A DNA stretch of 40,825 bases from Escherichia phage vB_EcoS_fKuEco01, in sequence record MT711525.1; one strand, given 5' to 3'. The notes under the pieces were generated by a model that was not told the DNA's origin, ran no database searches, and was given only the letters and a program-made list of their open reading frames with translations. This document shows, one piece after another, positions 34,582 through 38,573 of the stretch. The position numbers were made by a program, and so were the translations under genes. Every line of letters begins with the position of its first letter. Positions within the stretch are counted from its first letter, which is position 1.

Positions 34582-34610
34582 TTGCACACCCCAACATAAT
34601 AGGATACTAT
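34582..34610 (+). promoter_or_regulatory. early-type promoter TTGCAC-17-TACTAT with conserved leader
   Basis: near-identical unit at 35875-35903 and, on the minus strand, 12652-12680. Confidence 0.55.
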
Positions 34611-35874: not shown

Positions 35875-35903
35875 TTGCACACTGGGATAGAATAGGCTAC
35901 TAT
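35875..35903 (+). promoter_or_regulatory. early-type promoter TTGCAC-17-TACTAT with conserved leader
   Basis: matches the unit at 34582-34610 including the AACGAGAGGAG leader. Confidence 0.55.
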
Positions 35904-36814: not shown

Positions 36815-37021
36815 ATGGTACAGAGATATGATTTAACAGAAGACTGCGTGAGTGGCACGGTAGATATAACGCCTGTCCCGGACTCGCATGAAGGGCGTTA
36901 TGTGGCCTACGAAGATTACGCGAAACTGGAGCGCAAACTGCGTGAGCTTGCTAAGCAGGTAGTAAACAGTCCGTGCGACTGGAAGACGGATGAATTGGCG
37001 CGCGAGATTCTCGGAATATGA
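36815..37021 (+). CDS. hypothetical protein
   Basis: ATG 36815 after CAGGAG. Confidence 0.45.
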   Translation: MVQRYDLTEDCVSGTVDITPVPDSHEGRYVAYEDYAKLERKLRELAKQVVNSPCDWKTDELAREILGI

Positions 37022-37311
37022 GCCTGGCAACTGACATCCTGAAACGAAGCGGCCTTGCGCCGCTGTCGCCGAGAGCTAAAACACAGATATACAAGCGCCG
37101 CCGTAACGCGCTGTACCCTGAGATTCAGGCCCGACGCAAAGCTATCCGCGCCTGTGGCTTCCAGAACGGGAAGGCCGTGAATCTCGGTGAGTTCAAAACA
37201 CAGGAACGTGCAGCTATAGCTAATCGGTTATTTAATTACTGGAAATCGCTTGGATACGATGATATTCCGACGAAACCACAGAGACGACAATACATCTGGA
37301 GACATAAATAA
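37018..37311 (+). CDS. hypothetical basic protein
   Basis: 97-aa ORF. Confidence 0.45.
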   Translation: MSLATDILKRSGLAPLSPRAKTQIYKRRRNALYPEIQARRKAIRACGFQNGKAVNLGEFKTQERAAIANRLFNYWKSLGYDDIPTKPQRRQYIWRHK

Positions 37312-37341
37312 ACCGTTATTAAGATAATTCCTAACCGTGCT

Positions 37342-37381
37342 ATCCTCCAGTTACTGCATACTTAATACGCACCTGGAGGAT
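37342..37381 (+). promoter_or_regulatory. RNA hairpin predicted to sequester the holin ribosome-binding site
   Basis: 9-bp inverted repeat ATCCTCCAG / CTGGAGGAT; right arm contains the GGAGGA Shine-Dalgarno of the TTG-start holin gene. Confidence 0.45.
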
Positions 37382-37386
37382 TCATC

Positions 37387-37695
37387 TTGGATAAATTTAC
37401 TGAAACAGTGACAGGCTGGCTTCTCGCTGCCGCACTAGCCGGAGGGGTTATCGGACTACGACAACATAAGTCCGTTATTTCCGGCCCTATCGACGGCTTC
37501 TGCTTCATTGCAACTGGCTTCACTTGCGCCGTATTTGGTGCGCCTCTCGCGGCTCAATGGTTCGGTATTACCGGTGAGCGCGAGATAGCTGGCCTTGGCT
37601 TCATCATCGCTATTCTCTGGATGCCTATCTATTCCCGTCTCTCCAGTATCGTCGCTGGAGAATACATCGCGCGTCGAGGAGGCACAGATGAATGA
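37387..37695 (+). CDS. holin-like membrane protein
   Basis: 102 aa with three hydrophobic segments; TTG start; directly upstream of second membrane protein and endolysin. Confidence 0.5.
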   Translation: MDKFTETVTGWLLAAALAGGVIGLRQHKSVISGPIDGFCFIATGFTCAVFGAPLAAQWFGITGEREIAGLGFIIAILWMPIYSRLSSIVAGEYIARRGGTDE

Positions 37696-37960
37696 GTTAT
37701 TCTGGTTCGGCGGTATGCTGGCAATCGGCGGCACATCGCTGTTTAATGTATACCCTCCGAGCGTGGATGACGGGCTGTTTGGTCGGGTGCTCTATATCCT
37801 GACTGCTATCGTCTGCGCTGCCGGATGTATCCACCTGTTACAGGGCAGCATGTCACCAACGCTGCCTGAGACATTAATCACATTAGTTGCGCTGCGCCAG
37901 ATTCGTCAGGCGTGGTTGTCATACGGAGGATATAAGCGTGTCTCGAAATATTTCAGATAA
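37688..37960 (+). CDS. second small membrane protein of the lysis cassette (holin or antiholin candidate)
   Basis: 90 aa, two hydrophobic segments; GAGGAGG RBS. Confidence 0.45.
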   Translation: MNELFWFGGMLAIGGTSLFNVYPPSVDDGLFGRVLYILTAIVCAAGCIHLLQGSMSPTLPETLITLVALRQIRQAWLSYGGYKRVSKYFR

Positions 37961-38426
37961 TGGATTGCATTTTACCGCTGCATTTGAGGGATTCCGCGGA
38001 ACTGCGTATCGTGCTACGCCGAACGAGAAGTACCTGACTATAGGCTATGGTCACTATGGGCCGGACGTAACACCCGGCAAGACCATCACCCCCGGACAAG
38101 GCCTCCTGTTACTGAATCGCGATATGGCTAAGGCCGTAGCTGCGGTCGATGCAGCAGCACACCATTCGCTGACACAGGCACAGTTCGACGCTGTGTGCGA
38201 CCTGGTCTATAACGCAGGTGCTGGTGTGATAGCAGCTACTACCGGAACCGGTAAGGCGCTGCGTTCGGGTGATATTACGACGCTGCGGGCTAAGCTGGCG
38301 CTGTTCATCAACCAGAACGGCAAACCGTTACTTGGCCTGCGTCGCCGTACCGCAGGACGTCTGGCATTGTTCGACGGTAAACCGTGGCAGGAGGCTGAGG
38401 CAATCGGGCGTGCGGTGAAAGGTTGA
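37938..38426 (+). CDS. endolysin, lysozyme (glycoside hydrolase family 24-like)
   Basis: resembles P22 gp19-type lysozymes as recalled; GTG start 37938 after GGAGGA; track ORF starts upstream at 37887. Confidence 0.75.
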   Translation: MSRNISDNGLHFTAAFEGFRGTAYRATPNEKYLTIGYGHYGPDVTPGKTITPGQGLLLLNRDMAKAVAAVDAAAHHSLTQAQFDAVCDLVYNAGAGVIAATTGTGKALRSGDITTLRAKLALFINQNGKPLLGLRRRTAGRLALFDGKPWQEAEAIGRAVKG

Positions 38427-38490
38427 CACCTAAGACCAATCAGACGATACTTAAATCACCTCCTGTTCCATCCCTCTGCTCTCCAGTTTT

Positions 38491-38522
38491 ATCCCGGCCC
38501 TGACCCAGCCGGGATTTTTTTT
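38491..38522 (+). terminator. strong rho-independent terminator after lysis cassette
   Basis: ATCCCGGC ... GCCGGGAT hairpin followed by eight T. Confidence 0.8.
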
Positions 38523-38544: not shown

Positions 38545-38573
38545 TTGACTATTACCTTAGACCCTATTATATT
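38545..38573 (+). promoter_or_regulatory. sigma70 promoter TTGACT-17-TATATT
   Basis: near-consensus hexamers upstream of the ORF at 38607. Confidence 0.55.

Follow-up and report, generated by a model that had tools for sequence, protein, structure and literature searches.

Hairpins that occlude the Shine-Dalgarno (SD) sequence of a lysis gene are textbook cases of translational control, the S gene of phage lambda and gene e of phage T4 being the familiar ones. Holin output sets lysis time, and hence burst size. For the coat gene of phage MS2, de Smit and van Duin reportedly found that initiation drops as the stability of the local hairpin containing the SD rises. Kagunavirus, within the Guernseyvirinae, comprises the K1G-like siphoviruses of E. 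coli, which are widely isolated with a view to therapy against K1 and uropathogenic E. coli.

In lambda S, the access of ribosomes to a near-consensus SD depends on an upstream stem-loop, which thereby adjusts the amount of holin made and the time of lysis (10.1101/2025.05.14.654169). In T4, the long transcripts of e (lysozyme), soc, 49 and I-TevI that come from upstream promoters hide the SD or the start codon in a hairpin, and a promoter located in the DNA encoding the 5' strand of that hairpin gives short, translatable transcripts (PMC3014915). As for transcription or holin regulation in Kagunavirus and Dhillonvirus, the literature that we found consists of genome reports only, in which the hairpin considered here is not described.

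We analysed a stretch of 40,825 nt from Escherichia phage vB_EcoS_fKuEco01 (MT711525.1), referred to as the window, in which a 9-bp inverted repeat just upstream of a holin gene had been predicted, from the letters alone, to fold over the ribosome-binding site of that gene. The hairpin is best placed with the SD-occluding leader hairpins of phage lysis genes, functionally like those of lambda S and T4 e and not homologous to either; it would be a known type of translational brake and opens no new category. In both this phage and lambda S, a short stem-loop immediately precedes a class I (three-TMD) holin gene, but the two share no sequence homology, the stem here is longer, at 9-13 bp, with a large loop, and UUG serves as the start codon. 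Moreover, the lambda S structure splits initiation between Met1 and Met3 together with a downstream stem-loop, whereas the window holds no credible second start and no conserved downstream hairpin, and its N-terminal extension (MDKFTET) is unlike the basic, Met-Lys-Met type extension of lambda S. The likeness to T4 e lies in the layout, which is fitted by a -10-like element on the 5' arm. T4, however, uses gp55-dependent late promoters (TATAAATA), whereas the element in the window would be of the putative host sigma70 extended -10 type; T4 e is a lysozyme (endolysin) gene, whereas the gene concerned here encodes a holin; and the hairpins of the relatives described below double as intrinsic terminators, which is not described for T4 e. 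Applied at -14 kcal/mol, the MS2-type rule would predict strong repression by the window hairpin. That rule is a general principle and not a family, whereas the element in the window belongs to a single gene and is kept throughout a phage genus.

The lysis cassette and its transcription

More than 120 GenBank phages, nearly all of them Kagunavirus, match the region at 85-97% identity. The features of the locus are listed in Table 1.

Table 1. Features of the holin leader and the lysis cassette (positions in the window).
Feature	Position	Strand	Remarks
Upstream promoter-like site, same palindromic class as the next	about 34582-34610	+	
Sigma70-type promoter, TTGCAC-17-TACTAT with palindromic motif	35875..35903	+	promoter-like sequence
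Candidate -35-like element, TTAAGA, 16 nt 5' of TATCCT	37319..37324	+	weak
Candidate extended -10-like element, TGcTATCCT	37338..37346	+	inferred; overlaps the base of the 5' arm
5' arm (anti-SD), ATCCTCCAG, as RNA AUCCUCCAG	37342..37350	+	perfect complement of the 3' arm
Loop, 22 nt	37351..37372	+	
3' arm, CTGGAGGAT, as RNA CUGGAGGAU	37373..37381	+	includes the SD GGAGG (37375-37379)
Holin gene, 102 aa, TTG start	37387..37695	+	phrog_2359, E = 1.6e-29
Second holin-like gene, 90 aa, own strong SD GAGGAGG	37688..37960	+	phrog_2508
Endolysin, GH24 phage lysozyme	37938..38426	+	PF00959, E = 7.8e-27
Intrinsic terminator closing the cassette, AUCCCGGC / GCCGGGAU, then U8	38491..38522	+	read from the sequence

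The gene behind the repeat had been called a holin gene with a TTG start, and both claims were confirmed. Besides the profile match given in Table 1, the orthologue in phage Sciku has three TMDs with the N-terminus out and the C-terminus in, according to the annotators of that phage, who also marked the same GGAGG as the holin RBS. TTG at 37387 is the earliest start codon in the 102-aa ORF, and it is confirmed by homology, as it aligns with the ATG of the Dhillonvirus orthologue (MDKF.. vs MDKL..). Such starts are rare, being found in 2 of the 69 genes of the fTaEco01 gene set. The holin CDS of EcoPhCCP1 is annotated 123 nt too long and extends through the leader.

The SD of the second holin-like gene forms a duplex of -11.8 kcal/mol. 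In a divergent Kagunavirus-like phage (L053; ENA ERZ28594344 scaffold_189, 1501-2313), the endolysin gene directly follows the holin gene and the second holin-like gene is lacking; the 90-aa protein is therefore dispensable in this cassette type. The endolysin would start at a GTG, judging from the 489-nt CDS annotated in fTaEco01. According to the annotation of the latter phage, the cassette lies within a long rightward run of small genes, ahead of the terminase and structural genes. The gene upstream of the holin is mosaic, coding for either a 97-aa protein or an HslV-like protease with its stop at 37325-37327.

The two upstream promoters of sigma70 type are predicted about 1.5 and 2.8 kb ahead of the holin, and the terminator scan gave no terminator-like site on the + strand between the nearer one and the holin gene, so that read-through transcripts carrying the whole hairpin are to be expected. 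We regard the holin, the second holin and the endolysin as the last segment of a rightward operon that ends at the terminator of Table 1, which is at least 95% conserved in 32 loci and is followed by a new promoter-like site at 38545-38573. Read-through onto the holin is the situation in which hiding its SD makes biological sense.

The end of the cassette (38423-38522) is itself conserved at 95% or above at most positions in the 32 loci. Directly after the endolysin stop it contains a promoter-like TTGACA-17-GATACT, and the approximately 65 nt that come next include AAUCACCUCCUG, which nearly repeats the 16S rRNA 3' end (anti-SD), as well as CCCUCUGCUCUCC, with the strong terminator following. 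On this sequence evidence the segment might represent either a small RNA or a 3' UTR of anti-SD character.

The hairpin over the holin Shine-Dalgarno sequence

The repeat was found exactly where it had been predicted, with perfectly complementary arms 22 nt apart, and the folding calculations agree with the prediction that the hairpin would bury the holin GGAGGA (37375-37380; GGAGG stands 7 nt ahead of the TTG). The isolated hairpin has a dG of -14.2 kcal/mol (z = -4.62), and none of 200 shuffles folded as well. In contexts up to -150/+60 the predicted pair probability of the stem was 0.88-0.99. Isolated extra pairs are possible in the loop (U37352-A37371 and C37354-G37369), which would then measure 14 nt. 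The SD is strong, its duplex with the 16S rRNA 3' end amounting to -9.3 kcal/mol. Opening it is predicted to cost 9.5-11.2 kcal/mol when both arms are present, as compared to 3.1-3.6 kcal/mol if the RNA begins at 37350-37353. The holin SD thus lies within one strand of a local helix, as in a cis-acting SD-sequestering leader hairpin, and the helix is predicted to be stable enough to compete with 30S binding in its native context. An Rfam search of 37000-38000 returned no family, as the sole match, STnc500 (minus strand), reached 13.7 bits where the gathering threshold is 44 (E = 0.32).

The window contains 6 perfect inverted repeats with arms of 9 bp or more and loops of 3-40 nt, as compared to 6.1 ± 3.2 in dinucleotide shuffles, and a 9-bp repeat is therefore by itself unremarkable in 40 kb. 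The 109-nt context is no better folded than its shuffles (z = -0.99). When opening energies were ranked genome-wide in fTaEco01, a near-identical phage, the initiation region of the holin gene came 8th among 69 genes with 9.9 kcal/mol (mean 6.3, sd 2.7). A perfect 9-mer complement of CTGGAGGAT arises in 3e-4 of mononucleotide shuffles of the 73 nt upstream, a figure per gene that becomes about 0.02 across 69 genes. Decisive support for a function of the hairpin comes from the comparative evidence given below.

Our preferred explanation, which we consider quite likely, is that this cis-acting hairpin and the UUG start together throttle holin translation on transcripts from upstream promoters. 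In RNA that contains both arms, AUCCUCCAG would pair with CUGGAGGAU and bury the GGAGG, after which 30S binding would cost about 10 kcal/mol; in combination with the UUG start, this would result in low holin synthesis. Unchecked translation of the holin from read-through RNA would lead to premature cell death, and the hairpin probably keeps the cell from being killed too early. In vivo, then, the hairpin would form, lower translation and delay lysis. The strength of such a brake would be set by the stability of the stem, the UUG start and the strong SD, the last of which partly offsets the effect of the structure. The original prediction had spoken of a translational timer, together with the weak start: the brake on translation is supported, whereas the word timer over-reads the data, as it implies a switch and the evidence favours a fixed brake, perhaps with a difference between transcript isoforms. 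If a conserved leader element held holin translation down, one would understand why the host is not killed early by a lysis cassette placed last in an operon of small upstream genes, and mutations in the hairpin arms would then offer a simple handle for engineering lysis time.

Conservation and variation within Kagunavirus

About 130 Kagunavirus leaders were gathered from IMG/VR, GenBank and metagenomes. Variable sites of the hairpin were counted in an alignment of 51 leaders, and 33 metagenome leaders were added afterwards. Mean pairwise identity is 96% in the 70-nt leader, as compared to 62% at the third positions of holin codons 9-102; 85 of the 94 third positions segregate in these codons, as compared to 2 of 8 in codons 1-8. 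Despite the mosaic nature of the upstream gene, the conserved block begins at about 37315 in every phage, and up to about 37412 it hardly varies. The 5' arm does not vary in the approximately 130 leaders apart from A37349G, a change that gives a G.U pair and occurs on four separate backgrounds.

In the 51-leader alignment nine sites vary within the hairpin. Five of them are in the central loop, and the four located in a potential 13-bp stem all retain or create pairs. Besides A37349G, these are T37351G, which forms a G-C pair with C37372 (L025, L048 and L049), and C37372A with C37370T, which form U-A and A-U pairs (Salmonella phages LSPA1 and TU03, our L029 and L050). The mismatch 37351/37372 has therefore been closed from opposite sides in two lineages. 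The extended stems reach 11 bp at -18.4 kcal/mol and, in LSPA1 and TU03, 13 bp at -21.1 kcal/mol. Over 12 haplotypes, 90% of the cells are paired, as compared to 19-45% with a slid partner column. One-sided changes to G.U number four, changes on both sides affect two pairs only, 7 of the 13 pairs never vary, and the covariation score was matched by 22 of 500 shuffles; covariation in these alignments would thus give real but thin support for the pairing. Searches for intermediate relatives yielded one extra Kagunavirus-like lineage only (L053), and the power of covariation therefore stays low. The metagenome leaders contributed two more variant sites. One of them, C37370G (L130), concerns a position that is already unpaired and stays so; the other, T37374C (L142), disrupts a pair, weakens the hairpin to -9.6 kcal/mol and is the one exception to the pair-preserving pattern.

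Invariance of the arms is not specific evidence of pairing, because the 3' arm is the SD and the 5' arm overlaps the -10-like element. Nor do hairpin and promoter fully account for the near-invariance of the 22-nt loop and of the synonymous sites in codons 1-8; within these codons (37387-37412) we found no conserved structure that would explain it.

A smaller hairpin, UUAGGA-UAAU-UCCUAA, lies upstream at 37319-37334; it is perfect in about half of the Kagunaviruses (G37322) and has an A.C mismatch in the window. In the G37322 variants, AGGAUA (37321-37326) could pair instead with UAUCCU (37341-37346), as a weak competitor of the SD-occluding stem. A comparable GAUACC/GGUAUC pairing exists in L053.

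Phage fTaEco03 (L042, 2012-2386) carries a tandem duplication of 299 bp, in which a second copy of the leader, hairpin included, and of holin codons 1-43 is joined to the upstream gene at its 3' end; GenBank labels the truncated copy 'putative antiholin/holin'. Some database labels look wrong: SHAK7693 is filed under Autographiviridae/Kayfunavirus and TU03 under Jerseyvirus, and both carry the Kagunavirus lysis leader (the records concerned, that of EcoPhCCP1 included, are L048, OR594180.1; L050, MZ560703.1; and L049, PQ384582.1).

Hairpins at orthologous holins of other lineages

The holin of L053 is 66% identical to that of the window. Both arms are kept in its leader, where five of the 13 pairs of the stem are G.U and the loop differs and is shorter; the 5' arm reads AUCCUCUGG and is still paired by means of two G.U. 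The tail is U-rich (UUAUUUUG), and the hairpin passes the terminator scan. Dhillonvirus orthologues (47% identity) have AGUCCCAGUGAG-N6-CUUACUGGGACU followed by U6 and AUG, and a divergent relative, L159, has the same hairpin with adjusted pairs. In KW1E-like phages (28-37% identity) we found UCCCCGGA-N7-UUCGGGGA with U8 and AUG, and in L160 AUCCCCAAA-N7-UUUGGGGAU with U7 and CAUCAUG, one G-C pair of KW1E being swapped for A-U. The hairpins of Dhillonvirus, L159, the KW1E-like phages and L160 are unrelated in sequence to that of Kagunavirus.

The energies in these relatives range from -12 to -20 kcal/mol (z from -1.9 to -6.0). In every lineage the hairpin ends 5-11 nt ahead of the holin start, and the sole SD-like purines are on the 3' arm. 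In Dhillonvirus, L159, the KW1E-like phages and L053 the hairpin is called by the terminator-like scan and its U-tract touches the start codon. On the strength of these comparisons, the Kagunavirus hairpin appears to be a version of a device found upstream of the orthologous holins of Dhillonvirus and KW1E-like phages, and the UCAUC spacer common to L160 and the window suggests shared descent.

Alternative explanations

Complementarity that arose by chance and has no function would agree with the abundance of 9-bp inverted repeats in shuffles and with an initiation region that is no genome-wide outlier; we consider it highly improbable in view of the placement over the SD (P about 3e-4 per gene), the extreme conservation, the changes that preserve pairs or extend the stem, and the analogous hairpins in five other lineages. 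Quite unlikely is also that the hairpin acts mainly as a transcription terminator or attenuator separating the upstream genes from the lysis cassette. The counterparts in Dhillonvirus, L159, KW1E-like phages and L053 do pass the scan, with tail scores of 3.2-5.4, and those of Dhillonvirus, KW1E-like phages and L053 have the GC-rich stem, short loop and U-tract of intrinsic terminators. The window hairpin does not fit: its loop has 22 nt instead of 3-8, its tail, UCAUCUUG, lacks a U-tract and scores 1.52, within the random range (95th percentile 1.92), and the scan does not call it; this degenerate tail is common to all mainstream Kagunaviruses. It is unlikely, too, that the repeat is an element of the DNA, either a promoter or a protein-binding palindrome, with incidental pairing in RNA. 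The near-invariance of the whole 100-nt block, including the loop and codons 1-8, which the hairpin alone need not cause, and the promoter-like elements that overlap the hairpin would suit such an element. The substitutions argue otherwise, as those compatible with G.U pairing on the + strand would be C.A mismatches in a DNA palindrome or in the - strand, and the opposite-side closures of the 37351/37372 mismatch count against it as well. G.U pairs work only in + strand RNA and not in DNA, so that the stem retained in L053 with five of them argues for an RNA structure over a DNA palindrome. A spacing of 31 bp between arm centres would be unusual in an operator, and the palindromic motif that the phage does use is absent here.

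The original prediction had also pointed to a second in-frame GTG. The codon is indeed there, at 37408-37410 (codon 8), and is conserved within Kagunavirus; as a start it finds no support. The corresponding model would be a dual start as in lambda S, in which the hairpin partitions initiation between TTG-1 (antiholin) and GTG-8 (holin). As in lambda S, a stem-loop covers the SD belonging to the first start, and the record of phage Sciku names the product 'antiholin/holin'. GTG-8, however, lacks an SD, the 20 nt upstream of it binding the 16S 3' end with -3.1 kcal/mol, which is at random level (mean -2.4); the codon is missing from the Dhillonvirus and KW1E-like orthologues; the two starts are seven codons apart and the extension MDKFTET carries no net positive charge; and the candidate downstream hairpin UACUG-AAA-CAGUG (37398-37410) is broken by the common A37407T and in L053. 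A dual start is accordingly very improbable. Pairing of GUUACUG in the loop (37350-37356) with CAGUGAC (37406-37412) was rejected, being broken by A37407T. CsrA-type GGA sites were discarded on inspection, since the upstream AGGAUAA, absent from the window, is found only in G37322 variants. Translational coupling to the upstream gene was also dismissed: the stop codon lies 31 nt before the stem (15 nt in relatives with the protease-type gene), which would be too far for a terminating ribosome to melt it.

A promoter-like element on the 5' arm

The SD-occluding brake could be refined, and is compatible, with a control by transcript isoforms of the T4 gene e kind, in which a promoter on the 5' arm yields a short leader that can be translated. 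The hairpin would silence read-through RNA, and in the relatives also terminate it, and so act as an insulator that makes the holin depend on its own promoter. Transcripts from upstream promoters are predicted to carry the inhibitory hairpin, as for T4 e. If transcription began about 7 nt past the -10, near A37353, the leader would lack the anti-SD arm and opening the SD would cost about 3.3 kcal/mol instead of about 10; precedents are T4 e, soc, 49 and I-TevI (PMC3014915).

In Kagunavirus the TG and TATCCT of the -10-like element are invariant, and only the position between them varies (37340, C or G); L053 has TGgTATCCT. The -35-like TTAAGA matches the consensus at 4 of 6 positions (3 of 6 in the TTAGGA variants) and is enclosed in a block, GTTATTAAGATA (37315-37326), which is kept 15-16 nt upstream in Kagunavirus and L053 across a divergent spacer. 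The corresponding element of Dhillonvirus is TGaTATAGT; in one variant the hexamer is a perfect TATAAT and a stem pair is lost. In three sublineages of KW1E-like phages, the promoter scan called TTGACC-17/18-TACTAT or TAACAT, with conserved hexamers and different spacers, and the end of the -10 coincides with the beginning of the terminator stem (1076/1077, 469/470 and 467/466).

Against such a promoter in the window stands the weakness of its hexamers (8 of 12 positions plus the TG, 7 of 12 in the TTAGGA variants), which the promoter scan did not call. Sites of like quality on the + strand occur at chance rate in the window (5, as compared to 6.0 ± 2.5 in shuffles), and of the four -10 positions that match, three are dictated by the anti-SD arm itself. 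The promoters of this phage that can be recognised are of a different, stronger type with a palindrome. We hold isoform control at the window holin for a serious possibility, somewhat less likely than not. A promoter-like element over the 5' arm in every lineage suggests a bypass like that of T4 gene e, which from the sequences would be likelier in the KW1E-like clade than in the window and is clear-cut only in the KW1E-like relatives. A sigma70-like GAGACA-18-GATAAT (37299-37328) also matched the scan and was judged less likely than TGnTATCCT, as its -35 falls in the mosaic, non-conserved part and its GATAAT is not kept (GATACC in L053, GATGAT in LSPA1).

More speculatively, and with some doubt, the arrangement might be extended to a family-wide insulator of Kagunavirus, Dhillonvirus and KW1E-like phages, in which the holin's own sigma70 -10 overlaps the 5' arm and read-through RNA is terminated (in the relatives) and/or has its RBS buried (in all). 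If this were true, lysis would be gated by promoter choice and not by a fixed brake, and the device would be a version of that of T4 gene e for the host RNA polymerase, fused with a terminator and placed at the holin. The pattern shared by the family, in which a hairpin or terminator abuts the holin start and its 5' arm carries a promoter element, provides a testable model of lysis-gene insulation in sigma70-dependent siphoviruses.

The palindromic promoter motif of the phage, AATAGTAnCCTATTAT, which is absent from the holin leader, occurs in nine copies in the window, as compared to 0.76 expected (positions 2787, 5164, 12651, 25352, 28906, 31004, 31049, 34596 and 35889). It occupies the spacer and the -10 of promoter-like sites of the form TTGACA/TTGCAC-17-TAnnAT and agrees with the 'phage promoter' consensus reported by PHIRE for fBC-Eco01 (PMC9825357). 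From its distribution, AATAGTAnCCTATTAT is likely an operator common to the main promoters of the phage.
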